Positions 7,259 to 46,497 of a stretch of DNA of 64,000 bases are shown piece by piece. Below the pieces are notes generated by a model that was not told the origin of the DNA, ran no database searches, and saw only the letters and a list, made by a program, of their open reading frames with translations. Source of the DNA: Amoebophrya sp. A120 (Eukaryota; Protista; Dinoflagellata); the NCBI GenBank assembly GCA_905178155.1, contig CAJINV010000004.1:11205655-11269654 (forward strand), given 5' to 3'. The first letter of the stretch is position 1. Each line of letters starts with the position of its first letter. A program made the position numbers and the translations under genes.

Positions 7259-7539
7259 CTAGTTCATCTTAAAAGAGCACCGAGAACCGAAGAAGAAGCT
7301 CAAGTTCTGGATACGTTGCTTGCTGGCTACAATTAACAATGAATATCGCTGAAGTGTTCTCTCACCGTTTTGCCCAGTTCGACGGTAAAGGAGAGGGCGA
7401 GCGGAGTCGCTGTCCAAATGGACTCTGAAACCTCGGGGACGGAATCACTTGTGGCATCGGCGAGCGCGTGCGAAACCTGGTGTGACAATGCATCCTTATT
7501 ACAACTCGGAGGTACTAATACTATGGTCATTTTACAAAC

Positions 7540-9603
7540 TCAAGCGTTGTTAATAGGGATGATAGCTCGGCCCTGGGCAGCGTCCTCAACATTTTGATTT
7601 CTCACCAGCAGCACCACAATAAATAAGTACTGACTATACATGCTGCTCGAGCTCGAGCCGCCGGCGGTGGTTGCCGCTGCGGCGCCGGTTGTAGATTGGC
7701 TCGCGCCTCCGGCGCCGCGAAGCATGTTCGCTTTCCGTATTTCCGGGCGGAACAGAAAATGCCCTGCGGAGCTGCTGGTTTGAAACGCGTCTAAGTGATC
7801 CGCGTTTCGGACCCGGGGGTAGTTTGCCTGCTTCCGCTCAATCGTGTCCAATTCCGACACCGTCAGTTGTCTCGGCACAGCCTCCCCCGCGAGCCAGGGG
7901 TGCTTCAAGGAGTCGTGCACGGAGATGCGTTTGCTGGGCTCGATCTTCATCAGTTGCACGATAAAGTCGAGGCACATCGGCGACAGCTTTTGGTCAATCT
8001 GGTTCTTCTATCCTGTGCAAAAGTATCGCACTCGTACTGATTGCAGATATGCATAACAAATCCAACTCTCTACCTGAAATAGCATGACAAATTGCATTTT
8101 TGTTTTTGGGAAAATTTGTATATGCAATTTATACTAGTACGATACTTTTGCAGCGGATATCTTCCGCCGAAACAAACCCTCCAGATCGCCCCGGCGAAAA
8201 TACTGCCAGTACTCCTGGTCGCGCTGGGCGCTGTCGGCCGAGAGGAACAGGGGCAAAGCGGAGAGGAGGTAGAAAGTACCTGATTTTATTTCGCACAGTT
8301 CTGTATTGTTCAATTACTTCGTCATCTATCGACGAAAGACTCCCTACTAGATGAGTAGATGCCATCAAAGTAGATAAAACGGAAATCGAAATTCTTATGG
8401 AAACAGCAGTCCAATAAACAAGAGGAATCTTCTTGTACTCCAGCCTAGGCACCAGGAATCCACTTTCGTCGCGAGATAGGGTCTTTTCTCCGACAGTTCC
8501 GGCGGCCGGAAGCTTTTGCCGACCAAGCCCTTGTAGGGTACAGTTTTTTCCTCCTGTGTCTTTTCGTCAAGCGCAAATTCCACCGCTTGTCCGGGGTCGC
8601 AAATCTTTATGCGGACCGTGTCACCGTACACAAAGATGAGCAAGTTCTCCAGCGAAACGTCCTGCATGGCCATTTTCTGGTCGTGCAGCGCCGCAAGGCC
8701 CAATGCAGCCTGCCGCATCAGAAACCTTGGGAGGAAGGTGTTACATCACGGTGTTTCCTTTTTGTCCAAGAAATCACATGATGATGATTCCAGTTTTCCG
8801 TCGTTCGCCACTAGCGAATTCGATTGTGTGCAACATGAACATCGATGGAACATTAATATGATATCAATATCAATATCCACCTCCTACCGGCATTGTTGCT
8901 CTGGGAAACCATCGGGCTTGGTCTTCAGCGCTTCCAGCAAATCTCCTTTTGCAGCTAGCTCGAACACAATGTAATGACAATACTCGTCCTCGAAGGCCTC
9001 GTGGACCTAAATTTCCATTTGAAGGTGCGCTTTTCAGTTTTGAGTATCTTCGCAGGCCCGGGTTCTATTGACTGCCCAGGTCGTGGTCGTTATTATCCAT
9101 CGTGCTAATGGTGATGCAAGTGCAAAACAAGTACACTTACATACATAAGTAACTTCAATACTCACCTCAACGATGTGCTCGTGCCCGCGCATCTGCTTTT
9201 CAAAGCGTATTTCTGACAGCGGCACCTCGCAGAAGTCCAAACTGGGTGGCGACTTGCTGAGCTCGCTTTTGTGCAGGACCTTGACGGCAAAGGAGCGGCC
9301 AGTTGTGCAACCTGCTTTGATATCATGGGTCGGTTGCACATGGTTTTAGCATATTGATCTTCATCTTGTATTCATCTGTGCAAAACAGTGACAGTCAGTA
9401 GACCTGACAGCACTTCATCATTCATCATAAATTGTCAATCAGTACGCACCTTTCGCTTCATAAACGCCTCCGAACAGCGCGGCTTGCAGCGACCGAATGA
9501 GCTGATAAGTTTCTTTGGCGCCATAGATGTCAGGGCCGACCACTTTTTGGTCCTGCTTCGGCGGTGCATTTTGCTGACTTGTTTCGGGCGGTCCGGCTGC
9601 CAT
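7540..9603 (-). CDS. Ser/Thr protein kinase (CAMK-like fold) with atypical motifs
   Basis: Joined exons give LQAALFGGVY, FAVKVL, HEHIVEVHEAFEDE..IVFELAAKGDL, MQDVSLEN, KICDPGQ, FRPPE, KVDSWCLG, KRISVHDSLKHPW. Four GT-AG introns plus the element at 8009-8159. The 3' end is uncertain. Confidence 0.9.
8009..8159. mobile_element. Introner-like TIR element, family B (151 bp), TSD tcttc, opposite orientation to the other B copies
   Basis: tatcctgtgcaaaagtatcg...cgatacttttgcagcggata; excision gives ...FRRKNQIDQKLSPMC in frame. Confidence 0.92.
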
Positions 9604-10871
9604 GATGCTGCGCGGCGAGGACAAGTCCGTGGGAAGATGCGGTGGCGGCCAGAGAACGGAATCGGTGGCAGTTGACGAGGGTGTGGTACTTCTATCGGGC
9701 GCCTAATTGTGCTTTAGAATAAAAACAGGAGGTCGTTGGATTATTAAACGAAACGAAAATTGTCTGCCGGCGAAATGGAAACACACAGGGAAGGACACGC
9801 CACAAACTCAAGAAACGGAAACAAGTTACTTATAACGGAATCGGAAAAATGTCTTTAATTGCAATTTGTTCGGAAAGGCACACAGACGTGGTCAGGGGAT
9901 GCTCTGTCGCTTGCAATACCTCGGCAAATACTTTAACGTATACGCATGTAGTTGTGCGTCCCGCCCTACAACGCCTCAGTGTCTTCCCGCCCCGCCTTAA
10001 AAAACAATCAACTCTCTCATAATTCTGCTTCTTTTTGCTCTCGAATAAAGAAGGTGTAGTGCGTGGTCCAGTCATCTCATGATCTTCACACTACGAAAAT
10101 CGTGCTCTCTGAGGCAATTATCCACGTTCAAAGCCATTAATTAAACCCATGGCCCAGTTTGAAAAAGACAGTACCCTACCACCCAGCAGGGCGGGATTGT
10201 GCGCAGAATCAGCGAGCTGGTGCTGCTGCTCACACAAGTGTGAAAACGTCGAGCGCGGTTACTTAAACCAGATCATGCGTTGAAGTCGATGCCACGCTTT
10301 GACTGATTCGCAACACAACTTGTTGTTGATTTTTTTCAAGCAGTCCTGATCCTGAATACTATCTGCATACATGCTACTGCTTACATTAATACATTTCAAT
10401 TTGTTGCAGGACATTCTCGCGCTGCACATGTGTCCTCTGCTGCAACTTCCAACACAGCGGCACGATATTACGTAGAGGCAGGTCGTGAGATATGCTACTA
10501 GGGGTAGTCGTAGTAGGCGGACTGTACCTAAATACAACGATTGCTTACGCCGATACTAGATTGCTAAATACAAAAAGGACGAACCTCCCTTCAAAAAGGA
10601 AGTACCACTTGTTCGGAATTTCACTTTTTCATCAGAGCCAAAATTTAGAATTATCTTCCAAAAACTATGCATATGGAGATCAGCCTTTTGTTGATATGAC
10701 ACAGTCACAGTGAGAAAAATGATAACTTATGTAAAATGGTACTCAGTGCCTCGTGCAGGTGCAGCGCCAGCGTTCAATACATAGTGTGAGGACGTCGTTG
10801 TGTCATTTGTTTGACATAAGTATGCCGATGCGCCAGCAGCTTGCCCCCTTCCATTCTTTCTCTTTCACTGC

Positions 10872-11972
10872 TCACAAAACGCCCTTTTTGACCAGGTCCT
10901 TCTGCTTTGCGTTCAGTATCCAGGAAAAAAAGATTGTAGGCGTAACTTCTTTGGAGGAACAGCATTACAAATCTGTCTCGCATGAGAGCAAAATAATAAA
11001 CCTGTCATGCATAGATTGTACGTGAAAACGCGCTTGAATGGACGTTGCAATGCATGCTCTGCATGACAGCCGCAATTATTTTGCAGGTTTTGCATCACAA
11101 ATTTACACTAACAATGTTGTTTATTGGATATTCAGCTTCTTCACCCCATTAATCTTGTCCAGTTTGTTCACCTTTCCCGCCTTCAGTGCGGGTTTCAGCA
11201 ACTTGAAAACCTTTGCGGACAGCGAGAACCGTATCCCCCAGAAAAAGACCGACAGGTCATATTTGTAGTGCAAAAATAAATACACAGGAAAATCTGTCAT
11301 GGGCGAGGCCATAACATCCTGTTTAGGGCATGCAATACAGATTTTTTTGTCTATTTATTTTTGCATTACAAATATGACCTGTCGGTCTTTTTCTGGGGGA
11401 TAAACCGGCTGTTCCCCGTGTCCACAATGGCGCGCAATTCCCCTATGGGATTCTCAAACGTTACATTCTCAACTGTTACATCAATTTGTCATGCAAAGCT
11501 ACCTCAAGCCGCCAGATGCTCAAGCTGCTTCGCATGACAAATCTGCGAGGGGCTAGACAGCACCTAAATCTGTGCGGAACTTGTAATGCAAAAGGCGCAA
11601 ACTTCGCCCTTTCACTTTTGCCGTTCTTGCATTGCAAGTTCATGTAACAGTTGAGAATGTAACGTTTGAGAACGCCATATCCCCCACCTTCAGCTTCTGC
11701 TTGGTGGCCTTGCAGGCACCGGCCGAGCCCGACTACACTTCCTCGAACTCCAGCGACTTTTTCACGAAGCACTCGGGGTGCTGGTACGCCGTGACCAAGC
11801 GGCCCGCGACGAACGCCGGAACCCCGACCCGCATTGTGCCCTTCTTGATCGGCTTCCCGCAGCAGCGGCACGTGGACCGGTTGGTTTTTGCCTCTTCGAC
11901 CAAAACGGTCGGCCGGGCCTTCACCTCGGCGGAATAGATCACGTCGCCGTTGCCGTCAACGGGGAGAGACAT
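10872..11972 (-). CDS. PARP-type zinc-finger protein (one intact and one degenerate finger) with an internal in-frame TAG
   Basis: VEEAKTNRSTCRCCGKPIKKGTMRVG...HPECF, then EEV*SGSAGACKATKQKLKVGELRAIV...INGVKKLNAKQKDLVKKGVL* after removing three elements; TAG at 11733-11735. Confidence 0.75.
10917..11130. mobile_element. Introner-like TIR element, family F (214 bp), TSD ttcag
   Basis: tatccagg...ttattggata with imperfect TIR; ttcag on both sides; excision gives KKLNAKQKDL. Confidence 0.85.
11232..11402. mobile_element. Introner-like TIR element, family E (171 bp, long near-perfect hairpin), TSD aaccg
   Basis: tatcccccagaaaaagaccgacaggtcatatttgta...tacaaatatgacctgtcggtctttttctgggggata; excision gives NSRFSLSAK. 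Confidence 0.95.
11444..11679. mobile_element. Introner-like TIR element, family C (236 bp), TSD tcccc
   Basis: TIR built from tandem tctcaa-nn-gttacat units; excision gives KVGELRAIV. Confidence 0.93.
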
Positions 11973-13013
11973 CTTTTTGGCGCGATGTTTTTCGACTTGT
12001 GTCGTGGACGGAAAACGGATTACCAGATGAAATCCTGTATGTGTCGTTTGCGTAAAAAAACCTCCGGTGGTTGGAGCTCTTGTGAAAATAACAACCCCTC
12101 GTGGTGTCGACGATGAAGTAAACTGAGACTGGGTTCTTGCTGCAAAGCTCTGCGATACAAGACCGCTTTGCAAAGTTCGCGCGCGTTGTAAAACGTGATG
12201 AAAAATCTTGCCTATCAGAGATGGATCTAATAGCGCCGGGGGCTTGATACAAAGTCACTCCGTCGATTGGACGCCGGAGACGAGGCACTGACAACTGACT
12301 AGGTTTTCATTTTGCTTCTCGGGGACTAGTGTTAATTTCTTGTACAAAATGCAGCAGATTTATCGTAAGTTCAAGTTGCTTCTTCGAATATTCATATGCG
12401 ACTTGCAAGTGGACCGACTCCAACATTGATTTGCGCATCAGCGAGAAAAAAGACAAACCGATTATACTCGGCACTACTTCCGTCACTCTGACTCTACTTC
12501 ACAACCGATTTTCAATTCGATGAATACCAGCCTCTGCGCAACGTGAGGCGAGATCTTCTGTCCTAGTGATAGTCGGCGAGCTCTTACCATGTACGTTAGT
12601 TAGACTGTCATAAAATATGATCTGTGAACAGCGTCCAGGACCGATCAAGAAATCTTGAAAGAAAGGTAGGAGCTCCTCCGAGTGACAAAACACGTTCTAA
12701 CTCTAAGTAGCAACATGTTGCGTAGATTAAAGAAAAACTTTTCATCTTTTAATTACAAAAACCATCAATATGCTGTTCTCTTTTTCTTTCTTCCTTCGCT
12801 GTTCAAGAACTGCACTGCGTTGTGTTGGACCCACCATATGAACACGCGAAGGAATTCATAACTCGGCCAGTTTGCGTTGATTGATATTCCCCGAAAGACT
12901 GAGACTGTCGACAGTTTCAGAAAATGTTCAAAATTGTTCCATTCGAAATTTTCATTTCCTCGTGCGTTCTCGTGGTTGCTTCTCGAAAAAACATTTTCTC
13001 GCAGAAAAAACAG

Positions 13014-13330
13014 ACAGATTGTTTTTCAGCTTCAAAATTTCAGTGTGGCAACACACCGCTATACTTTTCAAAAATAGAAAAATAAAAATTAGTGTGCACT
13101 CAACACGCTAGTCTTTCGTTTCAGAATTTGTATACATGATCATGGTCGACTTTAGAGCTATGTAGTTTTGGATGCTGTTTCGAACCGTAAAATTGTACAT
13201 GTGTATTTGAGATCGATGCTGTTACTATGAGAGACCTTTCATGCACATGCTGTGAAAGGACGCACACTGGAATAACGTCGGTAGAAAACAGATTGTTTTT
13301 CAGCTTCACAAGTTCAGTGTGGCAACACAC
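13014..13330. repeat. 43-bp direct repeat (13014-13056, 13288-13330)
   Basis: acagattgtttttcagcttca(a/c)aa(t/g)ttcagtgtggcaacacac twice. Confidence 0.8.
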
Positions 13331-25109: not shown

Positions 25110-28100
25110 TCAGTTTTGGCTTGCTTTTCGCACTGCTTCCATGTTGACAAGCTCCACAAACGAGCGAGCCAACACATACAAGAGAAGCTGCGTCTTTCTC
25201 TTTGCAGCTGTTGCCTCTGTAGCTGTAGATACAACGAGGACAACATGCGGCTGAGGAGTATAAAAAAAGGTCAATTTGTGCACAAGACCTCTCATACAGT
25301 TCTGGTACTGTGCCTCGGCTGCAGACCAGGAGTACAATTTTTGCTCGGCGGGTATTGCCGGAAATGGATCAGACGTCACAAAGCTACTTTCCGCTCCTTC
25401 ACCTGCCTGTAGTTCTCTCTGTGTGCGCCGTGGACGGGGTAAGAAAGCCTCATCCCAGAGAACCACCTCCGAAGTAGACGTAGAACGACTACTGCAACCG
25501 GAGAAGGCAGGTGCGAGCACCTCAAAATTCACCAGCAGCTGGTAAACCAAAACCGAGACGCTCAGGTCAATCACGAGCCAGCTACAGTCCGCGAGGTGCT
25601 CGGAGAAAAGGGTGAGAAGAGTAGCAGCAGCAGCTAGAGGTGAAGCTTCATTAGTTTTCCTATTCGGACGAGAAGAAGAGCCTGTATCAAAAACATCATC
25701 TCCAATACGCTTTTGATTTCTGTCGTGTACAAAGCTAGTACGACTAGCACAAAGAGTCTTTCTTGGTTCCATCAAGTGGGGCGCGGGTAAAAACTGTGGT
25801 ACTGCTACCGGTACAGCAGGTACTGTGGCAGGATTATAAGGCGCAGCTGGTGGAGACGTGGGAGCGTTGTGCTCACGACGATGGCAGTTTTCGTGGTTGT
25901 TGACTTCTTCACCACCGTTCTCGTTTAGTTTTCTCGGTAGTTCATCTTCGACTACTTCTCCTAACAGCACAAGCGCGGGCAGGGGCGCGGGGCAGGACAA
26001 GGATCTTTTTGGGCACGTAATTATTTCCTCTGACGGCGATAAGGCTGCTTCATCTTCGTCCGGAAGATTATGATTTTCGCCGACGAGGAGGTGGCGGCCT
26101 TCGCCGTTCTTCGCATGATCTTTGTTCTGTTCTTTGATGGTATTATCAACTGTAAAAATGTCTGGGTCTGGAAGATTCTGACAGTTGTCATGCACGTTTG
26201 GCATGAGCCCTGATGTCTGTGATGCGTGCCCTAGCATCACAGATTTTCTGAGAGCTTCTTGATGCCTATTCCGCATGACAAATGCCCTCTCAACGTAGCA
26301 AAAATTAAACTCCTTTTGGTACTCATGCAATACAGATTTTTCTGGAATCCAGATGCAGCATCACAAGTTGCATTCTTCCAGACCCAGACATTTTTACATT
26401 TGATAGGTATCAGATGTGAAGAAATCTTCACGCGTGATTCTTCCTCTGCAAAAGTTCGTCCCCTTGGCGTCCGCCACGACCGCGTCCGCCGCCGCGGCAA
26501 AGGACGAAACTTCAGGCGTTCTTGTTTCGCCAGGTGCATTCTCTTGTTCAACTTCATCTCTCCTCGGCGCGTCACGAAGCACCGCACTGCACCCCACGGG
26601 GAACCACCAGAGCAGCGGCACGAACAGAAACGGCCCGACGAACCGGTTCAGAAGCAAAAGAACAGCGTCCGCGTTGAAGGGCAGAGCGAGGAGGAGGGTG
26701 AAAACAACGCAGACACAGCGGAGCACCGTAGTCAGCACGCGGCCCGGAGCATGTTCTTGTTGAGCCGCAGTGGAGGTCTTCAAGCGTTCGACATCTTCTA
26801 CGGGATTTGTGAGAAAAGCGAGGAAATTTGCGAACTGGCTTTCATCCCCCGTGCCATTAAACACAGTCGTGCTGGGGAAGATGAATGGGATCTCAGTAGA
26901 AGTTCTAGGGCAACGACGAGGACCAGCAGAGTTGTCGTCATTCACTTCTAACCCCGGACTGGGTCGTCCCCCGGAGAACGTCCTGGAGCGGTCGTTCCGG
27001 TGGAGACTTCCGTCGGACAGAAACCGCCTTTCCAGCACGATGGGCGAGGCGTCGTTGAAGTCGCTGCCGTATAACGACTGGTTCGTGGGCCTCGCCTCAT
27101 CGTCCGTTTCTTGCATCTCGTCGTCAGAAGTAGAATCGCTACTTACTTGATGTAGTTCTTGTCCAGCCGCGCTGTCGTCGTGTAGAAGTTCTTCTTGTCC
27201 AGCATTGATTTCCTCGTCGTCCGTCAGCAGCACATCGTCGCTCGCTTCCCGCGTCAGATTGCTGCGAGGAGGACCTCCGCCGGGGCCACGAGAATGATCT
27301 TCGCCCCCGCGTGGGGCCGCGTGGACCCGCAGTCGCAGGCGTCTCTGTCCTCCTCGCCGACCGTTTGCGGATCTTCTTCGCCGCGCGTTTCCGCTCGCTC
27401 GTTCCCGCCGATTGATGTTCTGTGCAAGGGAGGTCGTCGCCATCGACGCCCTTCCGACTCCTTGTTGCTGCCTCTTGTCACCGTGGTGAAGAGTATTTGC
27501 AGATTTTTTACAACATCTTCGGGACGACCAAGACGACAGGCAGGTGCTTTTCCACCTGTACACGCCCACTGCTTCAAACACACCGTGCACACCGAGCGAG
27601 AGGCGACTACTCCAGCTGGTCAGCAGTGCGATGTAGCTCACGGCGAAGCTCACACTGAGGAAGAGGGCGAGACAAAGTGTAAACAAGTGCAGGTGATATT
27701 CGACGTCCAAGTTGGAAGACTTTTCCGCACTAATTGTGTCGACGCTCGATGAGGGAGCGGCACGAAGATCATCCGACACTCGCCCTCCGCCATCGACGAA
27801 GGGCATGCTGTAGTCGGTTGAAGTAGATGTTGACCACAAACTCGCCAACCACTCGCGATCCACCTCGAAAAACAAGGCCCGCAGTGTCGCCAAAACGCCC
27901 CCCTTATTGCGCAGGAAATACCTGCCCCGCGGACTGCGCAGAATGAGCCAGGAGAGGCTGCAGGCTGCGAGGAGGCAGATGCGGAGCAGAGAACTGATTT
28001 TCAGCGGTAAGAGGAAAAAGTCGCAGCACCTCTTTCTTGTTGACTTGGACAAAGTGATATGAGCGTCATCGTCGCTGACATGTTGAGTAGAGTACAGCTC

Positions 28101-31100
28101 CTCTTGCTCGCCGTGTCCATAATTTTTCTTCTTCACGGATGCCTCTGTCGCGCTAGTTGCTCCAACGTGTAGTTCGTGATTCAACCCAGCTCGGACCTTC
28201 GTCTTATCTCCTGAAAATACGACAAAATCTTGCACGTGGAGCAGCCAATAGGAGAATCCGATCACGAAGAGCCCAAAATACTCGCAGAGCGCGCATCCGC
28301 CCTGTGAAATGTGCTGAAAAACGGAGCGCCCGTCTTCGGGATTGGAACCCGAGGCGTTGTCGTAGACAAGCTGCCGGTAGGCCAAAATCGCTTCTGGGAG
28401 TTTAAAGTCTACGTGTCCACGAGAAGATGATGAAATTTGCAGCTGCGGTGTGCCCCCAGAATGGTGTTGAAAAGTTGCAGTGTCCCCGAAGGATATCATT
28501 GACGAGAGCCGTGGAGGTTGCAGTGGTGTGGCGTTGTTGATGTCACCAACATCCGTCGTCCTGTGCACGGGAGTGGGAAGGAACTCGCTGCCTTCGTCAG
28601 TTGCTTGCTTGCCCATGATCGGTGGAAAGAGCGCACTAGCGAGATCTGGGCCTGGTTGTACTTCTACGAGTGTAGCTGTGGCGTCGACATCCGGATGAGC
28701 TTCAGCTGTCGTGGAACAGGTACGACATCTACGAGGTCTAGTTTTAATGCTGTGCAGCGGATTCGCGAGGTAGTAGGTGTGGGTGCGCAATTGCTCGACT
28801 CCTTCGTGCTGTTCTTGATCATTTTGACTATATCTCAACATCGCGGTAGAAGAAATGAAGTACCACCGCGCATTGCCTGTGATGACTGTGGTTGCTAGGA
28901 GCAGTCCGGCACAGGCTCCGATCCTCGCGCAGCGTCGGGCCGCCGTTCTTGGGGATGTCGCAATACAGCAGACGAGAAAGCAAAGAAGCACAGCTTCCGC
29001 GACCAGGGCGGGCAGAACAGGTGCAGCCAAGTCCGGGCTGTGAACGAACTCGCGCACAAGTCCCACCGAATCAACATCCCCATCCGGCTGGGGCACAGGC
29101 ACTGCTCTGGACGGCCAGGAGGTCCCACTGCTTGCACTTGGCCGTATCGACGACATCGCGGAAACTTCTTCTACAGGTGCTGCTGCAAGAGCCGACCGTG
29201 AAGAAAACGAAAGCGCAAGGGCACTTTGTGCGTTGTCGTCCGCCGTTTTGTTTTCATCTTGAGGTTGCACAGATGGAGGAATGCCTGATTGCCAGGAGCC
29301 GCCACCACCTGCAGCTGGCGGTTTTCTCCGAGCTCCCCGTCTAGTGGATGCCCCTGTAGTTCCCCCCGTTGCAGCTGTACTGGCCGCGGGTACAGCCGCA
29401 CCGAGCACATCCCGTGGGAATTCCCGCCGGCTTGCTCCAGAGACCGCTAGCAGATGCCCCCGGTCCGGGCTCGGGCTTCGCATTCGGCTGCCCCCCTGCG
29501 AAGCCGCCCGCCCGCGGCGCTGCTGCTCGAACACGCTGGGTCTCCGCAAATCGAGCAGATCTTGACCGGGTGAACCGTCAAGAAGCGCTGAGGGCGCAGA
29601 GGCGGTGTAGTTGAAAGAGGAACAAGAAGTGGAGTGTGCTGGTACTTCGGTTCTTGTAGCACTGTCGCTACTCACTGCTGTTCCAACCGCAGCGTTTGCA
29701 AATTCCTCAGTCACGACCGACGTTAAAGCAGCACACGACGAGGTGGACCACCCGTGTTCAGCATCCTCATCTCGCGGGGGCTCCTCGTCGTTGGTCGATG
29801 ATAGAAGGCCAGCGTGTTCAAGAGCTACATTGTTGCCCATGCTTGCTCTTGATGCAGCACCACCTGATGCGGCAGGCGGCCCAGCTGAAGAATTTTGTTT
29901 CCCGCCGGGACGCCTATGCAATTGTTGCGTCGACCCAGAGGACCTGCGCCGTGTTAGAGGTACTAGATGCAGATCTTCGATGCTGCAGTCTGCCGGCCGT
30001 GGTGCGGAAGTGGAGACGGGGATGGATGGCGCAGCACAGCTGGTCGTAGCGTTCTTGTTCTTTATTCCGGAAGGGGAACATCCTCCTTCTAGTTCAACAG
30101 AAGACCACGCCGTCTGCAACTCGCCCTCCTGCTGCGGGTTTTGATGTGCGGCTCCTGCAAGAACCTCGACCTGGATAATGGCGGTCGTATTTTCTGCGGG
30201 CGCAAGAATATTAGTGGATTCTGTGGTCGTCTTCGTCCTTGTCAGCACATCAGAAGATATCGTACTGGTTTTCGCACTTTTGCTCCTCGAGGAATATACA
30301 ACATCCTCCGACGCCGGCTGCGTTGCTGAGGGGGCAAAGGTTGAGTTCGTTATCTTTGTCGTGCTGGCTCCTACAGGCACGGAGTCATCAACTCCGACAG
30401 CGCTTTTTCCCGCCGATGAAGCGTGAAGATGAGACTTGGCTGCGAAGCCGCGAGCAGAGACGAATTGTACTTCCTCTTGCGCGGCCGGTGCTTCCTCTTC
30501 AACGCCTGCTTCGATTTTAAGCCTTTCCTCCCTCTCCTCCGCGTAGGCAATGGACATGCGCGGACGCACGACACGATGCATGCCACGGCGTTTCGGTTTG
30601 TGGTGCATGTGCTGCGACGAGGCGGGTAGTGATAAACCTCCGTTGCTTGTCCCTCCTGCCAGAGCGCTTGCCCGGGCGGAACCGGAAGACAGCTGCAGTG
30701 CGTCTTCGACGAAGATTCGCGTTTCTGCCACGGTGGGCAGCTTGTAGGTTTGCACCTTGTGCAACACCCTTCGGCAGGCGGACCGCACAACCGGAATGTC
30801 GTGCAAAAGGTGTACACTTTGCGCGAACAAGTTGAGCAAACAGGCACCGGTGAACAGCATGGTTGCGTGGTACAAAACGTCAAAAAGGATCACGACCGCC
30901 ACATTCAGGAGGAGTGCAGAGAGATTGGTTGTTCTTCTTGTTCCAGGTCGACGATCATTTTCCCCTTTGTCGTCCAACCCGTATTCGTTTTTGTTTCTAT
31001 CAGTGCTGCAAGATGAAGTCCGTTGATCCTGAGTCGTCCTAAACATGTTCTTCGCTGGATGTTCGTTTCTTTCTGTGTGGCTGTAGCGAAAGCTGTCAGG

Positions 31101-33164
31101 AGGCACATCGCGTCCTGCTTCTGTGCAGGGGAGGCGTGGTAAAATAAACGGGACATTATGCAACTGCGCGGATTGGGATTGGGAACCATGATCGTAAGCG
31201 CCGCCGTTATGTCCTTCCTCATCTTCGTCGACTCTTGCGTCTATTCTCGTTTGCAAAACGAATGCGGATTGTCCATTTGTGCAACTAAAATTATCGGTAT
31301 TGCCATGTTGCACAGGTGGATCATCGAAGTTCAGCAGCGTCGACTCTTCGCCTTGCGCAGCTTCATCTCCATCCTCAAAAACAAGGTCGAAAAGCGGATT
31401 TTCAATTTCAGTTTCCACCTCCGCATGGATTGTTCCATGGCCGTTCCTCTGGTCGAGGTCATTAAGGACAAAGTTGGGAACTGCGAATCTTCCCGAACAC
31501 CTCCTACGAGGAACTGCAACTCCGCCAGCTCCTCGTGCTGTCACTACCATCTCCTGGCCTGTCAGTGCTGTTTCATCAACAACATTTACTATTCCGTCGA
31601 GGGTTCCTCTAGTACTACTTCCTCCATTCTCGGTTCGCAAACACTTTTGGAAGCACACTCGTGCGAGGTCGGGTAGTGTCGCCACCTCGTGTCCGCGGTG
31701 AAGCGTCGCAAGCTCGTACGACCGCGCGAGCGCGGTCCCGGCGACGTGCGCGCACAGCCCGACGGTGGCGAAACCAAAAACCAGGACGTAGGGCACGGGG
31801 CAGACAAATGCCGCGGCGGGGAGCGTCACGATTGGGATTCCAATGCCGAGAAACGTAAGGCCGGCACAAGTTGAGAAGCAGGATGGCGGAGGTGTTGTAC
31901 TGTTAAAGTCCTGTGGAGGATTCGACCCGCTCATCTGATATGCGGCCATTGATGTCGCTCTTGCGCCCGACAGTAGCTGATCCGCAGATTGAAGCACTAG
32001 TGTGCTGTGTTGAGTCTGTAGTTTACTAGAACTCCCAGCAACGCCCATAGGGTCCGCAATAATCTTCCTGGGAGATGCTAGTGGCGAGATGAAGCCAGTA
32101 GCTCGTGCAGTGTCCGCGGGAAAAACAAGGCCTGGCAAATTTCCTGTTGATATCAAGTCGTCAGAGCGCTGCAGCGAGTGTAGTTCATCAGTAGTAGTTA
32201 TAGTTTGCGGTTGCTTTATTTTTCCCAACCGCTCGGAGGCCGCACCAGCGCCATCGTGTTCTTGAAAGATCTCGTTCACGGTCGGTCTACTAGAGCAAAA
32301 TTTGTTCCCGCTATACAAGCCCGAAAAGGTCCAGTCGTTCGGACTCGGGGCCGCCGCACCTTCAGCCGGACCACCGGGTTGAAAGGCGGACAAGACCGTC
32401 TGCCGTGTGAAACGCCGCGTGAGTGAGTCGTTGTTCGCGTTCAGATTGCCCAGAGTGGCCATTGAAGTTCTCGTCTCCCGAACCCTAAACCCCAAAGAGC
32501 CCGGATCTACAACTCCGGGGTCCGCCCCCACCGAGCACCGACTAAAGGTTCCCAGGGAGGATGAACCTGCGACGCCAGTGGAGCGGCCCTCTAGCGGACG
32601 CGGGCTCTGCGCTGGGCCGGGGGTCATCATCTGTTGCTGCTGGGCTTGGTGATCCAACAGGTTCGCGCGAGATGAAAAAGTCGAACTACTGGAACTGCTC
32701 GAGCTGCGGACGGTGTAGTTGATACCAGTGCCAAAAGCGGCATCGTATTGATCGGCAATTGCCGATGCGGTGCTCGGGTGTCGCCGCAAAAGTCGATGCT
32801 GTTCTCCACCTCCACTCGCCGTTTGTGCAAGGGCCACGGCGTGCTGCCCGTGCGTAATTGTTGTGTTTCCGGTAGTTGCAGTAGAAATTCTTGTGCCCCC
32901 GGTGGTCCTCGCGGCATGAGGTGGCACCGAAGCAGCTCCGGACGGGGGAGGTGTGGCAGTCGAAGGAGGAAAAAACACAACTCCGGCTGCCCCGGTAGAC
33001 GCGTGATTGCCACCTTCGTTTCCAACCCCCACCGCCTGCGGGCTCGCGCCCCCGGCGGTAGACGTGTCCTCGGAGTTAAGAGAATCGCCGCCGCCTGACC
33101 ACACGCGGTTGCGGGGAACCGAACTCTCCTTCGGCAGCGCCTCGCGAAGGGCGGACGTGAGCAT
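25110..33164 (-). CDS. Very large multi-pass membrane protein, divergent amino-acid permease-like, with long low-complexity insertions
   Basis: 2258-aa ORF joined to ORF 25110-26330 by removing the element at 26144-26405 (SDTIKEQNK); dispersed hydrophobic helices; GIGIPIVTLPAAAF...ATLPDLARVCF resembles the AAAP/Aa_trans N-terminus (family call tentative). Confidence 0.65.
26144..26405. mobile_element. Introner-like TIR element, family A (262 bp), TSD ggtat
   Basis: Family A TIR; frame restored on excision. Confidence 0.93.
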
Positions 33165-33765
33165 AGTCACGTTCCTGACCTGCTTGACCCTGCGCTGCGA
33201 AAGCCTGCTCTATTCGGCACAGGTGGTGGAAAGCTACAACGCAGTTAATCGAGTTTCAAAAAGTACGCTCCTGCAGTAGCGGCGTCGGTGTGTCAAGGTC
33301 AACAGATTCTCCTGGGCCTGCTTAGTCCTGCTTGTGTGAAAGAAAAACGTCAAGAAAAACAACGAAGCAGCAATAGCAAACAGTTTTACGAACACGAAAA
33401 GCTACCACTACATGAATTCTCTATTAGCACGTCCCACATCTTGAAAAGCAGATGTGCAGAGAGGTGACCCTTCTTGCTTTCGTTCTGTTTGCGGTGTTGA
33501 GTGACACCCACGACAGACACCAGTGATGCATGCATTAAAAACGCCTGTTTTCTGCTTCACCAGTCACCTGGTTCAACAAGTTCTGACTTTATCATTGTCA
33601 TTCGCTGTGTAAACAAGTGGTCATTAGTTTTGCTTGTGGTTCTTGTTCAGCCATGTCCGACTGGTGAACGAATAAACCAGTGATGAGCTGCAAGACCGGC
33701 TCTAGCGCACAAGAACCTTTACTACCTAGTTCTCCATCTTCTTCCAAATGTCGTGAATTAGCGCC

Positions 33766-36700
33766 TTACTCGCCATTCACCCTGACCACCCGCTGCGCGC
33801 GCATGATTTCGAAGGGAAAATTTACGCGTCGCAACCGCGTCCCCGCAAAGATTGTCCCGGCGGTTGCGTCTTCCACCGCCCAGTCGCTACCCTTCCAGGG
33901 AAGGTTTTCCTGCAGCAAAAACCGGACGACTTTGTTCGTTGTCAAATACCCGCTGGCTTCCGGGTACGGCGGGTAGACGGGCAGCCCGCCCATGTCCTGG
34001 ACGTATCGGCAGTTCTCCCAGTGCCGCTGGTGCAGGTTCACCTCCTCTTCCAAGCTACCGCAGAACACCCGGTTCCCGAACAGAATCCTCCCGAACAGAA
34101 AGGGCAGCCGGGCGCGCTCCTCCTGGGCGCGCACGTCCGACACATAAGAGACCTTGTCCCGGAGCCGGTAGTGCACCAGGTGGATCCGCGCGTGGCTCTG
34201 GGCGGACACGGACAGGGTGCCGGAGGGATTCTGGTTTTCATTCTCCAATCTCTGCTTCGTCTGGGCGAGGGTCTTTAATATTCTTGTTTGATGTAGTTCT
34301 TCTTCTTCTTCCCGCCGCTGTTGCTGTTGCACATCCTCTTCGCCTTGTGCTGCTGCTGAGCCCGATGCAGCTTCCCCTTCATCCATTTCCGGTCGATTGA
34401 AGTCCTCCCATACCTCCGGCCACCACGGGTTCTGTTGCACGTCTTCGTCGCTCAGAAGTGGTGTAGTTCTTCCCCCTCCTCGTGTAGTTGTGGTTTCGTC
34501 GTTGTCATTTCCGATTTCCAAGATTTGTCTTCTTTGCTGGGTGAGCTCGCCCTCCCAGAACTGCTCCAGCTCGTCGTTCATCTTTCCGTCGACCACCAGG
34601 GACCCGATGTTGTTCCGGCGCGCCTCCAGCTTCGGCGGCAGCGCCAGCACGCGCTCACAGTGGCTGTAGGTGAAGCAGTGGCTGTTGCCGGTGGCGGTTT
34701 CCGGCTCGCCCCACTCGAACCAGCGGCAGTGCGGGTTGCGCTGGCACATGGTGGAGCACTGGAGGAAGGTGGAGTTCCAGTGCTGCGCGAACGTGCGGAA
34801 TCGGTCGATCACCTCGTCCGGCTGGTAGTCGCAGATATCAAATGCAGAAGTGTCTGGGTCTGGAAGAGTCTTGCTGTTTTTGCATGACACAGAAGGTCTG
34901 GCATGAAAGCTCTAGCATCACAGGTTTCGAGAAGCTTCCGCAATGCCGAATCCGCATGACAAATCCACCCCCATTTTGGTGACAGAAAGTGGGCAGCTTT
35001 TGCTACCTATGCATGAGAGATTTTTCTCTGTTCTGAAATGCGCATCACAAGCCTGTATTCTTCCAGACCACCCAGACATATTTGCAATCCATAGCAGAAG
35101 TGGTCCGACAAAATCTCCCACTCCTGCCCGGTTTCGATGGTGGGCAGGTAGTTCAGGATTTGCTGGATCTCCATCGCGTTGTCCACGTCGGCGCGGATGA
35201 AGTACTTCGTGTTGGGGTGCAGCTCCAACGCCTTCCGGTACGCCGCCGTCATCTTCTCGACCAGAAACCGGTACCCGTGCGGCACGTCGACCACCAGCAA
35301 GTCCCGGCTCGTGTCCTCTTCGTTGCGGTCCGGGTCGTCCCGGCAGAGGATGAAGTAGTGCAGCTTCGTGGCGATTCGGGTCTTCCGCATCACGAACGTA
35401 GGCCTGGATTCCAGCAGTGTCGGCCCGGTGGACGCGTCGGTGACCGGGAAGGGGAGCTGGTTCAGCACGGAATCCGCTACGGTCAGCGACGGCGCGCCGC
35501 TGTGGCCGTACCGCTTCAGCAGCCGCTCCGTGCGCTGCAGGCGGTACAGTGCGGCGTCGTTCTCGCGCATCAAGTGCGCGACTTCCCGCGCGGTGCCGTT
35601 CTGGAAAACCTGCTCGGTGCGCGGGACGAGCTTCGGGCCCGCCACGTCCAGGACGTGCTGGACGTCCGTGAAGTACAGCGTCCGCCTCAAATACGTGCTC
35701 CGCGCCACCTGCATCAGCTCCCGCTGCCTGGCGCACACGGGAATCATGATCAGAATGTCCAGCTCGTCGTCCAGCAGGAAGTCCAAAGGGTTCTGATACA
35801 GCGTGACCGTGTTCGCGCCAGCGCTGGCCGGAGGTGCTGGTCTGTTTTTAGGCCTTCCAGGTGCAGAAGATGAAGCTGGTGCTCCTGGAGCTGACAGCAC
35901 ATCCTCTTTGAACTGGAAAATCGTCTGCTCGGGCGCAGCAAGGGCAGGAAGATGGCCGAAAGTGTCAACTGCTACGGTAGAACTAGAAGCAGAAGCTCCT
36001 GATACACCGTTAGAACCGGCACTAGTGCTCGACGGCGGCGCAGGCGCAGCTCCGGATAGAAAATCTTGTTCGACATGATGCTCTACTTGGCCGTAGTGTG
36101 GGTTGAACATGGTATCCCGGATGGCCTGCTGGCCACTGTCGTAAAACCAGTTCATCAAGGAACACTCCCTTGCCCGGTCCTCCTGATTTGTCGACTGGTG
36201 GTGCACGCCGACGGTGACGCCCACGAGGTAGCTCATTCCCGCCCGGCACTCCGCGACGCTGTTCCCGTTGCGTACCCACCCGCTGCTGCAGTCCACGCGC
36301 GTGGCGGAGCAGCCGGGCAGCCGATCCAATTCGTCGTCCTTCGTCCGCAAACGCTTCGCCGCGTCGCTCCACGGCAGTAACGCGGTGGTGAACCAGGGCG
36401 CGCGGGTCCGCACCAACAGCTGCTTGTGCCTCGCGTTTCCCCGCTCGTACCGTTCCTCTTCCGGAAAGAAGGGGAGCACGGTCCGCGTTTCCTGGAAAAT
36501 CTCCCCGAGCAGCTCCTGTCCCGCCTCGCCCTGCAACTGCGCTTGGCCCCCAAACTGCTGGAGAAGTTTCTCCTTTCGAACGAACTGATCGTCCGACCTC
36601 TTCGGGTCCCAGAGCGCAATGGAGAGCGGTGTGTGGAGCCGGGGGTTCAGCGGAGTTGTTCCAGATGACCACGTTGAGGAAGTTTGTACTTCTTCATCCG

Positions 36701-38864: not shown

Positions 38865-39989
38865 TTTTTTCTGAGTTTTAAATGGGAAAGATTTCGGCTT
38901 TTTCTTCTTCATCATTATAGCAGATATTAATCTTAATCATCATACAAGAACAACTGTCGTAGCGAAACCCAAAATCGTACTCGATGTATGTTGCGTGAAA
39001 GAATAAACATCAGTGTGGTTGTGTCACAAAATCTCTTACAAAAAAAATGATGTATCCGTGCCTTTATTGTCAGGGCGAAGAACAAATACAGCCTATACTA
39101 GACGCATGGACCTAGTAGGAGACAACCGACATCAGCCACACAACTGTGCTGGAGACACTACTTCTCAGATCCATCGACTCAGAAGTTTTTGGCGAAAAAA
39201 TGATCCAGGGAAAAAAGGCAAACGAGGGACAATGACATAGATCTACTTCTCCACTAGCGCCTTCTTTTTGGAAAATACGAGAAAACCTCCAATGAAATAA
39301 CGATGACCGATGCGGTTGCGGATCATGATGAAGATACACATACCCCCGGGGTACATGGCCACGACGCGGCTTAGAGCATGCTGGACCCGCTCCAATGATG
39401 AAGATCACGTTTCTTTCCTTTACACACTGTCACCGGGAGAGTAGCGAATCAGGGAAGTGAAGACAAGAACTGCACATTCGTGACCTGAACAGCAATTGAT
39501 TCGTCTTACGGTGCAGCTCCCTCGTCTTTCAAAAAACTTACGCAGCAAGAATGCTGCCCGCCGTTGCGACGTTGTTGTTCTTGGAACAGCTGTCTTCTTT
39601 TCGTCCAGCTGGACTTGCGCTTTTACTAGTAGCTTCTGATCAACTACATGGTCGCGGATCTTTCTCTGTTCCTACTCACACTCAGGTACTTACTTCTTAA
39701 ATCCTTTTCCTGCTGTCGCGACCCGAATAACATGCGTCGACCCCCACTAGCTGGATCCTTTTCCTTATCAACCTCAAAACGCGCATCCACTGGAAAAGAA
39801 AATCCCCCGCGCCCGTTCGCACAAAGGAGTTGTAACGCTCACTTCTCACTGTAAGGTCCCCGTATCTATGATCTCCGAAATCCACTATGCATAGAAGTTT
39901 CATCGCTCTCGTCTGCTGTAGTGCAAAGTCTACTTCTCCGACAAGATGATGAACGCCTCGAGAAACTACAGGGTCGTCCCCTGGTATTT

Positions 39990-42900
39990 CTAAACCGCCA
40001 CTACCTGCTGGAAGAGAAATCCGACAACGAGATAGCCCAATCCCAAGGTGAACACCAGCCGGCAGTCGGCGAAGTACCGGGGCCACTGGATACAGGGGTG
40101 CTGGTTGTGTTCCTGGGAGTCGTAGTTCTGCTGATACTGCGACATCTCCTCGCCGTAAAACAAGGCGTCCAGCAGAAAGGAAATCTGCCGCAGCACCCAC
40201 AGCAGCGGCCACCATTCGTAGCTGGTGCACGGTTTTTGCCACTGGTTCCCCTCGAACTGCACAAATTCGAAGCCCCGGTTGTGCGTTCGCCGGACCAGGG
40301 GGTTTTTCTGCTCCCGGTGCTGCTCCTCGTAAACCGCGAGCTGGTGGTGCTGCCGCCGAAGCAGGTCGTCCGGACTCAAACACCCATACCCCGGGGAAGA
40401 GTAGTAGGCGTGGTGTTGGCCCGCAAGGACAGAATTCCTCATGTAGTAGTTATCGCGATCAACATCTCCAGACGTGGTTCGTTCCCTGTTGGGCTGCAAC
40501 TGGGAAAAGTCGAGGGGCGAGACCGTGTTGGGCGCAGGGTAGTAGCTGACTTCATCCTGCTCGCCGTCGTGGTCCTGGGTGGAGGCGTTCAGGTCTAGCC
40601 GTCTCCGCAAGGAGGAGTGTCGGTGCGGGTTCCCCGCGTGGAAGTTGTGGTCGGAAAGCAGACTCGAGTCGAGATTGTCCTGCAGGATCCGCTCCCGTTC
40701 CAGCCTGGCAGAATTATAGTCCTCTCCCGTCAAGTCTGCATGTGGTGCGCCGTGGATCATCCCATTGTAATTGCCAGAGTTAGAAGTAAATTCCATCGCG
40801 TCACGACGCATCTTCTCGGACCGGAGGAACTGCTCGTATGGCGTTCTCAACTGTTACATTTTCAACTGTTACATGAATTTGTCATGCAGAACTACCATCA
40901 AGATCCACACGAGAAAGCTGCTTCGCATGACAAATTTGCGAAGAGCTAAACAGCGCCTAAATCTGTGCAGAACTTGTAATGCTAGAGGTGCAACCTCCCC
41001 CCTTTCACTTTTGCCATTCTTGCATCGCAAATTTATGTAACAATTGAGAATGTAACAGTTGAGAACGCCATAGCTCGGTGACGGAAAGTTCGTTTTGAAT
41101 CTTGTGCTTATGCCTTGCAGAAGTATCGTACTCGTATAAATGCAAATGCAAGTCTCGCATCACAAATCTTGTTCCCAAAGCAAATCAGCATTAGAAATTC
41201 TATTTCCCACGCTGAGGAAATTTTGAATGCAATCATACGAATACGATACTTTTGCACAGGATAGTACTTCTTCCGTAATGACTGCGACGGTGAACCCGCG
41301 AAGTTATTTGTCGATGACGAAGGATTGATATTGTCAAGAGATACTTGATCTCGAGCGGAGATAGTACCTCCTCCAGTCGAGGAGCCTGGTACAACAAGTT
41401 GACCTCCGCCACCGCCGAGCAACGCGCCGACCCCACCTGTCATCTTGTCCAACATCCCAGAGGGTTGCAACACTGGTTCCTCTGGGAGAGAATCGTTGAA
41501 GAGGGGCGACCAAGCAACCGTCTCGCGACGCAGGCGGTACTTTAACCGCGGAAAGGCGTCGTATAGTTTCGGCGGGACAAGATGCAAATTGTCCAACTTT
41601 TCCTTTGCTGGCCGAGATTTGCTCGCCGGGTTTTTCGTGTGTGCCACGGCTGCTGCTGGTCCGCCCTTGCTAGAAGATCTGGCGGGCTGCTGTGCCGTAG
41701 CTCCGCCTCCGGGCGCTCTTGATAAGGACGTCGAATCAAGCGTGGTTTGAGGTGGATCAACGGTACCAGCCTGGTGATTGTTGTTTTCCCTACTATTGGA
41801 CCGCGCTTGCAGTTCCGCTGCAGCTTGCTCTGGTTTCTGTTTCGACGTACCCACGTGGCCTACAGTACTGTGTCCTCGGTCGTCCCCACCCGCGAAGGAG
41901 AACAGTTTTTTCCACCAAGAAAACCCGCTGCCAGTCCCTTGCACCGCGTAGAGGTTCGGATCCTCCGGCCCCGCCAACACGGAAGCGCCGCCACCGACGA
42001 CCGCGCGCACGGCTCGCGGCTGCGCATCACCCGCTGCTGTTTGTGCAAATGAAGGCGTTGAAGACATGACTCCTACTCCATGATTATTAACACTAGTACC
42101 AGGCAAGTGGTGCACTGCTCGCGCGGGCGACAGTAAGGGACTCGGTTTGCGCGTGCTGTGGTACAGCTTGGACCGCATGTCCAAGGGCGGAAAGAGCGCC
42201 TATCAAATGCAAAAATGTCTGGGTCTGGAAGACTCTAAACTTGTGATGCTGTCTCTGGATTCGACAAAATTTTGTATTGCGTGACCAGTAAGAGGAGTAG
42301 CTTTTGTGCTCCGCGGAGATGGCATTTGTCATGCGGAATAGGCATGAGGAAGCGCTCTAAAAATCTGTGATGCTAGGCCATGCATCGCAGGCATTATGGA
42401 TCATGCAAAATATGCATGACAAATCTTGCAATCTCCCAGACCCAGACATTTTTGCATTTGATAGCGCCGCTTGTCGCTCCATTTCGAAGTCCTGCAGCAA
42501 GTCCTGTTCGCGAAGTTGTGCCTGCTGTGCCGGGGGTGACCGCCCGGAACCGCTGGCTAGCATGCCGGTTTGGTTCATCTGGGCGTTTTTCGTGCTCAGG
42601 ATTTTGGCCGCACCCCCCGCATTCGCGGTGTTGTAGACCGAGGAGCACTGCTTGAAGTTGCTCACCGGACTGCTGACCGGGTCGTGCTGCTTTCTCCGAC
42701 CACCGGGCGATGAAGAAGCCGCCGCCTGCCTCCTCTGCGCGTTCCGGATGTGTTGGTCAGGCTGCACGACGCCTCCGGCGGGAGCCTTCCCCTTTGCTCC
42801 TCCTGCAGCCCTTACGTTTATTTCTGCCTGCGTTTTCCTTTCCATTTCGGTGGACATGAATCCGCAGACCTTCTCCAGCATCGCGACGGTCGGCTTCGCG

Positions 42901-45900: not shown

Positions 45901-46497
45901 CCTGGGCGAGGAAGTTCAGCGTTGGCGATTCGAACACGTCGATGTCATACCGCTCCTGGCGAAGACTCGGAGGCACGTCGAGCTGTGAGTGTGATGTGGA
46001 CGAGAACGAGATGAGTTCTTGGGATAAAAATCCGAGTGGGACAAAAATCCGAGTGGGATAAAAATGAATCCTCATTGAACAAAAGCTGGCGTTGAAAATG
46101 GTATAAATATATATAATTTCCTTTTCTATACGTATTTCAGAATTTCTTTCTGCATCCGCCACGGCAGAGTGGAGATCGGTAGCGCCATATATTCTCCCGA
46201 AGAAGATGCTGATGCCCCAGAAGAACCGACACCAGCCTCGTAGTTCGTTGATGGAAGCAGCGCCAGGAAGTCCAGGGAAAACGCTTCGCACAGGGCGGTC
46301 GCGAGCTCCTGCGGTCGCTTGCTCTCCTCGAGGAGCAGAATCCATAACGGCTGCAGTTGACAGAGGTAGGGCAGGTGCTGGCGAAACAGCTCAGGCTCGT
46401 CGAACTTCCGCGAACTGGGCGTACAGATGTAGTCGCGGAACAGGAAAACACTCCGCTCGTCCGGCCCCAGTTGGGGGCAAAGCTGGGCGATGGACAT
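39990..46497 (-). CDS. SMPD4: Sphingomyelin phosphodiesterase 4 (nSMase3/NET13)-like tail-anchored protein
   Basis: Recalled family motifs in order: DPLLYYLITF, YEKLLIEYL, TWLLLCQPW, DYVTRHWSLY, FEGNQWQKPCTSYE..LLWVL, PRYFADCR plus C-terminal TM helix; four elements and several canonical introns. Confidence 0.7.
40837..41072. mobile_element. Introner-like TIR element, family C (236 bp), TSD gctcg
   Basis: tatggcgttctcaactgttacatt...aatgtaacagttgagaacgccata; excision gives SVTEQFLRSE. Confidence 0.95.
41109..41263. mobile_element. Introner-like TIR element, family B (155 bp), TSD gtgct/gtact
   Basis: Family B TIR; excision gives RKK(Y/H)KIQNELSV. Confidence 0.9.
42201..42463. mobile_element. 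Introner-like TIR element, family A (263 bp), TSD gcgcc, reverse orientation
   Basis: tatcaaatgcaaaaatgtctgggtctgg at both ends; body is the reverse complement of the 26144 type; excision gives QAALFPPLDMR. Confidence 0.95.
43982..44158. mobile_element. Introner-like TIR element, family E (177 bp), TSD cgagc
   Basis: Long hairpin related to 11232-11402; excision gives SSSSTPGAPP. Confidence 0.93.
46020..46065. repeat. 17-bp tandem repeat (~2.6 units) near an intron 3' end
   Basis: ggga(t/c)aaaaatccgagt repeated. Confidence 0.7.

Follow-up and report, generated by a model that had tools for sequence, protein, structure and literature searches.

The window studied here is a stretch of 64,000 nucleotides (nt) from Amoebophrya sp. 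A120 (contig CAJINV010000004.1, positions 11,205,655 to 11,269,654 of the forward strand), in which genes are interrupted by short repeated elements that begin with TAT and end with ATA. By scanning for inverted repeats inside direct repeats, and by comparing the window with itself, 22 such elements of 145–816 nt were identified, among them one end variant. All 22 were flanked by a 5-nt direct repeat, the target-site duplication (TSD), which was perfect in 19 cases and had one mismatch in 3. The scan found no element in 133 kb of shuffled loci compared to 132 in the same 40 loci unshuffled, and when 267 perfect cases were read in the same register, a 6-nt repeat fitted none and a 4-nt repeat only one. 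Eight elements belong to family A, four to family B, three to family C and two to family D, and five are single-copy in the window. With terminal inverted repeats (TIRs), a TSD of fixed length, short size, lack of coding capacity and multiple copies, the elements display the features that mark MITEs (miniature inverted-repeat transposable elements); these MITE-like elements stay in the DNA and are absent, with one copy of the duplication, from transcript assemblies. The first-pass annotation, made from the sequence alone, placed all host genes on the minus strand, and this held for the hosts of all 22 elements as judged from GT-AG introns in the same contigs, spliced open frames and Pfam matches (kinesin, kinase, SRAP, glycosyltransferase and zf-PARP).

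The terminal arms of every element in the window are predicted to fold into a long stem on either strand, with hairpin z-scores on the transcript strand of −9.2 for the reversed family A copy at 42201 and −8.7 for the forward copy at 48602. No Rfam match was obtained within the window, and the longest element (49364–50179, 816 nt) contains no long open reading frame (ORF). This element was removed as exactly as those of 145 nt and could be a relic of an autonomous element after internal deletion. A 20-nt arm motif matched at least 145 further loci, all of them in assembly JACKZZ01 and 80 of them with 2-kb flanks, which are known here as DNA sequence alone. Among the matches listed, JACKZZ01 held 286 elements, 136 of family A and these up to 93% identical to the copies in the window, and positions 11–28 of the arms were paired in 78–97% of 194 elements. 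These are the introner elements that Farhat 2021 (PMC7789003) described in Amoebophrya, a system that is already known. The available part of that paper describes the A120 introner elements as having inverted repeats of TAT, 7 nt and a run of A inside direct repeats of 3–5 nt, with the mechanism unknown; this motif was present here, with A at positions 11–14 in 105–126 of 128 per arm among the matches listed.

Removal was followed in assembled contigs of one sample in four transcript-like runs, which give junctions and not splicing efficiencies and which covered 20 of the 22 elements (without those at 26144 and 34836). The RNA label of these runs is a guess, supported by the finding that the same contigs also lacked four GT-AG introns. 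Thirteen of the 22 elements were seen removed as exactly the element plus 5 nt. In the region 39801–53600 all eight elements were skipped in this way, each in four of four runs according to the joints listed. Four of them lie in one minus-strand host transcript (39801–46811): a family C copy (40837–41072; joint 40831>41073, skip of 241 = 236 + 5), a family B copy with an imperfect TSD (41109–41263; joint 41103>41264, skip of 160 with an ambiguity of 2 nt), a reversed family A copy (42201–42463; joint 42194>42463, skip of 268 = 263 + 5) and a family D copy (43982–44158; joint 43976>44159, skip of 182 = 177 + 5). A single contig of 5785 nt was without these four and three GT-AG introns, leaving a frame of 1764 amino acids (aa), and 20 of 20 altered removal lengths cut this frame to 1106–1510 aa. 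The remaining four are two forward family A copies (48602–48863; joint 48596>48864, skip of 267 = 262 + 5; and 52129–52379; joint 52123>52380, skip of 256 = 251 + 5), the 816-nt element (joint 49358>50180, skip of 821) and a family C copy with an imperfect TSD in a minus-strand host (52499–52742; joint 52494>52744, skip of 249).

In the region 4001–24000, five of 12 elements were seen removed, as judged from the coordinates of contig pieces in run X3; for the other seven the table was swamped by repeat contigs of run X1, which is no evidence of retention. One X3 contig consisted of the pieces 4001–4307 and 4759–5975 with 37 nt between them (4458–4494), so that a family B copy in orientation 1 with a perfect TSD (4313–4457) was gone with one TSD copy, as was a reversed family A copy (4500–4758); a minus-strand frame of 673 aa was then open. 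At the SRAP gene 43 nt lay between the pieces, and both a family B copy in orientation 1 (16376–16534, with G instead of A as its 3′ terminal base in transcript sense) and a forward family A copy (16582–16836) were gone. The SRAP protein after this removal matched the protein P0001 of Amoebophrya sp. A120 at every letter over 400 aa, and it was gap-free at both junctions relative to an A25 protein and a third Amoebophrya protein. The fifth element, a family B copy in orientation 2 inside a protein kinase domain (8009–8159), was traced partly by arithmetic: an X3 piece ends at 8003, at the duplication and on one side only, and the 670-nt gap to the next listed piece equals four kinase exons after loss of four GT-AG introns and the element plus 5 nt, with a product of 462 aa. 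Only 1 of 160 donor/acceptor combinations gives 670 nt, whereas 32 keep the frame. A kinase transcript with up to three introns was rejected (0 of 25308 sets fitted, whereas four introns did). Between adjacent elements, micro-exons of 27–42 nt occur at 4458–4494, 16535–16576 and 41073–41103 in the window and at 654–680 of the JACKZZ01 locus L034. As the ones in the window were kept in the contigs, neighbouring stems of different families cause no exon skipping.

Strong hairpins with 5-nt direct repeats are a classic setting for template switching, both features are present here and only cDNA-derived contigs were seen, so the skips could be regarded as a library artefact of reverse transcriptase jumping across the hairpin between short direct repeats. 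This is hardly credible in view of the one exact junction per element, the frames of 400–1764 aa that depend on precisely that removal and the orthologous proteins that are gap-free at the junctions. Also, the removed length was not a multiple of three in 179 of 308 elements (divisible in 129, a ratio dominated by the length of family A) among the matches listed, and retention would break the genes.

The other way of accounting for missing elements, raised by the first-pass annotation, was excision from the DNA before transcription, by somatic transposon excision or in the manner of ciliate internal eliminated sequences in some life stage. The symmetric, TA-containing ends, the single copy of the direct repeat left behind and the removal in both orientations would suit such a process, and the DNA-like run comes from another sample than the RNA-like ones. 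In ciliate-type elimination, however, the element is absent from somatic DNA, and here the contigs of the one DNA-like run, X1, passed from unique flank 25–56 nt into the elements without a break at the duplication, in those of the 8 listed pieces that lie next to elements. No skip of element plus 5 nt was among the 15 joints listed for X1, beyond which there are 485 more; X1 may be the source of the window, in which case rare excision would be invisible. The junction register and the terminal conservation are moreover polar to the transcript, and we know of no split between soma and germline in the Amoebophrya lineage. DNA excision is thus unlikely, to the point of being very improbable, and we hold with high confidence that removal takes place at the RNA level. 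Differences in run X1 were clustered at 6081–6663 and 14126–14158 and perhaps reflect repeats or assembly errors.

The orientation of the copies was called from their interiors, with 50 nt trimmed off each end before pairwise comparison. The first-pass coordinates of 8009–8159, 16582–16836 and 42201–42463 proved exact, and the interiors agreed that 42201 is reversed relative to 20936, 26144, 34836, 48602 and 52129. The copy at 16582, on the other hand, which had been listed as reversed too, has the orientation of those five in 5 of 5 comparisons and runs against 42201. A copy that had been overlooked, 4500–4758, is the other reversed one. Family A split cleanly in 28 of 28 pairs into 4500 and 42201 versus 16582, 20936, 26144, 34836, 48602 and 52129, and 42201 and 48602 are 82% identical in opposite orientation. 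For family B the claim that 8009 opposes 4313 and 16376 was confirmed, but 41109, which had been grouped with these two by its end word, has an interior opposite to both (orientation 2); the relative orientation of 8009 and 41109 is undecided on the full, untrimmed length. Because 41109 shares the end word of 4313 and has the opposite interior, end words do not give orientation, and they were rejected as a marker. The first 10 nt were identical on both arms in only 15 of 144 family A copies among the matches listed. The copies at 20936, 34836 and 52129 have interiors that are 89–92% identical, yet their arm words of the first 10 nt differ, which suggests that end words have been exchanged between arms or copies. 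Families C and D each occur in one orientation in the window.

By orientation, removal was seen for both reversed copies of family A, for 3 of its 6 forward copies (3 of 3 where RNA was visible) and for all 4 copies of family B. The reversed 42201 and the forward 48602 were both removed, and what the first-pass annotation had only deduced, removal in both orientations, was thus seen directly in families A and B; in neither orientation were the elements left unspliced. Orientation-independent removal is supported in the transcript assemblies.

Orientation was tabulated against host strand, as had been suggested along with that claim, for the loci listed from JACKZZ01. A codon model that had learned from the exons of the window assigned a host strand to 134 of the 286 elements, with agreement between neighbours in 73 of 74 and with the ORF call in 48 of 49, among the matches listed. 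Relative to the host, family A copies oriented like 20936 and like 42201 were found among these matches at 34:28 by the codon model, 23:16 by ORF and 43:44 with propagated calls, about 50:50 in all three sets, but the strict subset in which both calls agree, also among the matches listed, departed from this. Without any strand call, 13 neighbouring family A copies had the same and 16 the opposite orientation, and 12 of 21 loci with at least two called copies had both orientations on one host strand, again among the matches listed. When the element plus 5 nt was taken out, 81 of 192 listed cases had an open stretch of 240 nt on either side, compared to 28 for plus 4, 32 for plus 6 and 32 for plus 0. 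The published introner elements are described as having families specific to a strain; family A recurs in JACKZZ01 at up to 93%, and this assembly may or may not come from the strain of the window. The host exons of JACKZZ01 matched A120 proteins at 100% in locus L034 and at 81% in locus L124, a contrast that a sister strain, a paralogue or transfer of family A between strains may explain.

Removal in both orientations could still be canonical if each orientation took canonical or near-canonical sites (GT/GC/GA-AG) of its own from the duplicated target, the way introners of Polarella and Aureococcus do, and the first-pass annotation had allowed for such cryptic sites. Six TSD registers were tested per element. 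A cryptic GT-AG was found in none of the 13 removed elements, GC-AG in one (42201 at register 4) and AT-AC in none, leaving 12 of 13 without a GT/GC/GA-AG reading, including the reversed 4500, 8009 and 41109. GT-AG was readable in only one of all 22 elements, 23264 (register 2). That the key reversed copy 42201 can be read as GC-AG speaks for canonical sites, but register 4 was excluded at 41109; and at the family C copy 52499, the only exact-length GT-AG within 15 nt (offset +6) falls outside the observed joint. Among the matches listed, 185 elements with a perfect TSD had a strand call: GT-AG was possible in 13 in sense versus 8 in antisense, and the other 172 cannot be GT-AG. Not one TSD position had a fixed base in these 185; position 5 was G in 63 and position 1 was the mirror C in 58, and AG at positions 3–4 occurred in 20 versus 11 for the mirror word, a difference in the direction expected of canonical sites. 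Neither the bias toward G at +1 nor that toward AG at −2/−1 was significant. Acceptor-like pyrimidine-CAG words inside the arms of families A and B were unused in the contigs. Canonical sites of the elements' own are thereby largely refuted as an explanation and are given very little credence. What is unusual is that the target site contributes no splice dinucleotide.

Where the two TSD copies differ, as in 41 of 308 elements (about 13%) among the matches listed, the position of the cut can be delimited. At 41109 the mismatch lies at position 3, and because it is the upstream base that appears in the contigs, no more than 2 nt ahead of TAT are removed. At 52499 the mismatch lies at position 5 and the downstream base is the one retained, so the loss ahead of TAT is 1 nt or more. 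Provided that a single register applies, the cut would then be placed 1–2 nt before TAT and 4–3 nt after ATA. The two ends also differ slightly in conservation. Among the matches listed, the first T was invariant in 215 of 215 strand-called elements, a set without 3 terminal variants with uncalled hosts, of which one or two might contradict it, and the last A was changed in 8 of 215 (6 to G, 2 to C). Variants at positions 2–3 numbered 7 in the 5′ arm and 2 in the 3′ arm, and the arms of family A deviated from the consensus about equally, among the same matches. The first-pass inference from orientation to a symmetric signal fits these data; its logic was too strong, however, as the junction is lopsided and the terminal inverted repeats give the transcript the same 5′ word in either orientation, so that a polar machine could serve too. 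The signal is offered alike in either orientation, and its use carries a faint polar trace.

We consider RNA excision measured from a hairpin to be the best explanation of the whole, with a confidence that slightly exceeds an even chance. A cut-and-paste transposase blind to strand would have inserted the elements and made the 5-nt duplication. In the transcript, the arms are predicted to fold into a terminal stem of 30–45 base pairs in either orientation, and this stem is most probably the recognition signal. A machine reading the hairpin would make its cuts at a constant spacing from the stem base, 1–2 nt upstream of the 5′ TAT and 4–3 nt downstream of the 3′ ATA; the two distances sum to 5, which would restore the exon. 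The exons would be joined by an endonuclease and a ligase outside the spliceosome, as has been proposed for Euglena and shown, in an imprecise form, for SOS splicing. This non-spliceosomal chemistry, to which we incline slightly, is favoured by the lack of any fixed base at +1, −2 or −1 and by the fact that the acceptor-like words in the arms are unused. Taken further, and more tentatively, Amoebophrya may possess a second system of mRNA splicing, independent of the spliceosome and exact to the nucleotide, that gauges its cuts from the foot of whatever TAT...ATA hairpin it meets, a precise and domesticated form of SOS-like splicing.

Several observations weigh against hairpin-measured excision outside the spliceosome. 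All the RNA evidence consists of contigs of one sample with a guessed RNA label, and contigs drop rare forms. Two junctions define the register, on the assumption that it is fixed, and the protein checks at position 4 disagree, with L034 fitting register 1 (0–1) and L124 fitting 2, the residue of L124 being that expected for register 2 or more unless a Lys-to-Arg change is accepted. Near the stem base, positions 4–7 of the arms were paired in only 39–72% of 194 elements among the matches listed. On the sense strand there was no excess of G-U over A-C pairs (7/4, 76/88, 42/62 and 67/54 in four zones, among the matches listed), and therefore no strand-specific selection on the stem was seen. The strict orientation subset was skewed 18:6 among the matches listed. 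The invariant first T fits a spliceosomal U at +2 as well, and A120 has U2, U4, U5 and U6 and most spliceosomal proteins (PMC7789003, available part).

The last two points lead to an altered U2-type spliceosome, for which the repeat would supply an N-U-A 5′ word either way, the hairpin replacing U1 and, by fixing the distance to the 3′ site, AG. With a cut 1 nt before TAT, U would fall at +2 and A would follow at +3, as they do in GUA; of the 8 canonical donors read in the window, 6 start with GTA. Register 1 is allowed by both junctions with an imperfect TSD and favoured by L034, although L124 favours register 2, and the 5′ end has the invariant T (215 of 215, against 8 changes of the last A, among the matches listed). 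According to the available parts of the published work, U1 snRNA was undetected in A120 while other snRNAs were present, the nine commonest A120 site types all have T at +2 and the A25 types start with TT (Table S4, PMC7789003), and Fritillaria removes TIR-derived introns with a modified spliceosome (PMC11282704). The Table S4 categories may, however, be aligner choices inside the direct repeat. Under neither register is there a fixed base at +1, −2 or −1. Positions 2–3 vary more in the 5′ arm (7) than in the 3′ arm (2), and 6 of the 8 changes of the last base are to G, which still pairs with U, in both cases among the matches listed. Finally, no hybrid junction joining an element end to a canonical site was present among the 14 joints in 39801–53600. 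We regard the altered spliceosome as the main alternative to the hairpin-measured cut with ligation, possible but less likely than not.

Nine further elements of the window were located by the scan. The zf-PARP gene (PF00645, approximately 10880–11975, minus strand) contains a single-copy element (10917–11130), a family D copy (11232–11402) and a family C copy (11444–11679), the latter two assigned by interior comparison. An in-frame TAG occurs at 11733–11735, about 50 nt before the first element, and the frame continues past it across all three element junctions; the TAG may mark a pseudogene, a nonsense allele, read-through or an assembly error. In the kinesin gene, elements are located at 19650–19972 (TSD with one mismatch), 20055–20465, 20936–21186 (family A, the forward copy used as the reference orientation) and 23264–23518, and their removal opens a minus-strand frame of 770 aa; the last of them splits the kinesin motor, with Pfam matches to 1–118 and 126–274. 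Removal of the forward family A copy at 26144–26405 extends a frame from 2271 to 2610 aa, and that of the forward family A copy at 34836–35093, in a glycosyltransferase-90 gene, from 1309 to 1635 aa. The copies at 52129 and 52499 interrupt a histidine-rich protein of about 310 aa (approximately 51860–53300, minus strand), of which the upstream exon has no Pfam match; a 367-codon antisense frame is also open there. Two very long single exons on the minus strand, 26394–33209 and 54832–59784 (2270 and 1649 codons), had neither Pfam matches nor elements detectable by the scan. Short direct duplications unrelated to the element families are present at 5974–6033/6748–6807, 12710–12811/15114–15214 and 13014–13056/13288–13330.

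The following comparisons hold for the passages available of the papers cited. The published Amoebophrya introner elements (PMC7789003) agree with the window in their inverted-repeat motif, direct repeats, hairpin, RNA-supported non-canonical ends and co-oriented genes. They are given repeats of 3–5 nt and variable or unknown splice sites, however, where the window has a constant 5-nt duplication and a register of 1–2 and 4–3 nt, and "orientation" is used there of genes only (4 times, and 3 more in the supplement text), whereas here both orientations of the elements are removed. A120 is reported to have 65% non-canonical introns, and its U1 snRNA was not found (PMC7789003). The non-conventional introns of Euglena have a paired motif CDG...CHG with 3 nt before and 5–6 nt after it and a purine at the start of the next exon (PMC12501133; PMC3935182). 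They share with the window the lack of GT-AG, paired ends, direct repeats, a proposed MITE origin, a longer 3′ spacer and an undefined machinery, but the window has TAT...ATA ends, no purine rule (109 or 106 of 185, among the matches listed) and families that are still recognisable, and Euglena is an unrelated lineage; the elements are not members of the Euglena type. In SOS splicing, AKAP17A, CAAP1 and RTCB act on paired inverted repeats imprecisely and often out of frame (PMC12779559). There too a DNA transposon leaves the mRNA by way of inverted repeats and sites other than GU-AG, but in the window one exact, frame-restoring junction dominates per element (8 of 8), with the proviso that contigs drop rare forms and that others might be masked by nonsense decay.

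Introners of Polarella glacialis and Aureococcus are DNA transposons with TIRs and TSDs of 3–8 nt that make introns in either orientation, those of Polarella being spliceosomal (10.1101/2020.10.14.339549). Their GT/GC/GA and AG sites have to come from the end of the element or from the TSD, and their orientation is biased, whereas the TSD in the window is unconstrained. Fritillaria (PMC11282704) and diplonemids (PMC12621601) resemble the window in non-canonical ends and in paired termini or a TIR/TSD origin; Fritillaria retains AG-AC/AG-AT ends and its introns are thought to be spliceosomal, and the diplonemid mechanism is open. One pipeline allowed pairs in opposite orientation (PMC9860276), and the A120 families are discussed in PMC12130899, where orientation is absent from the passages found; the passages of PMC11282704, PMC12621601 and PMC13326754 likewise contain no orientation data. 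A literature search, in which subscription journals were mostly uncovered, turned up no study of the Amoebophrya elements that tests their orientation or register, and their orientation-independent removal is apparently unreported so far.

How the published elements leave the RNA has been an open question since 2021, and the indifference to orientation and target, the constant 5-nt duplication and the lopsided cut make the mechanism testable. For annotation of these genomes the rule would be to delete the element and 5 nt. If the removal is both non-spliceosomal and exact, it would represent a new chemistry of eukaryotic mRNA splicing that has converged with that of Euglena and with SOS splicing, and the chief obstacle to introns made by transposons would be gone. 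If a second splicing system of this kind exists, a transposon with a 5-nt duplication would be silent in any exon, sequence and orientation, which would explain gains of introns by the tens of thousands.

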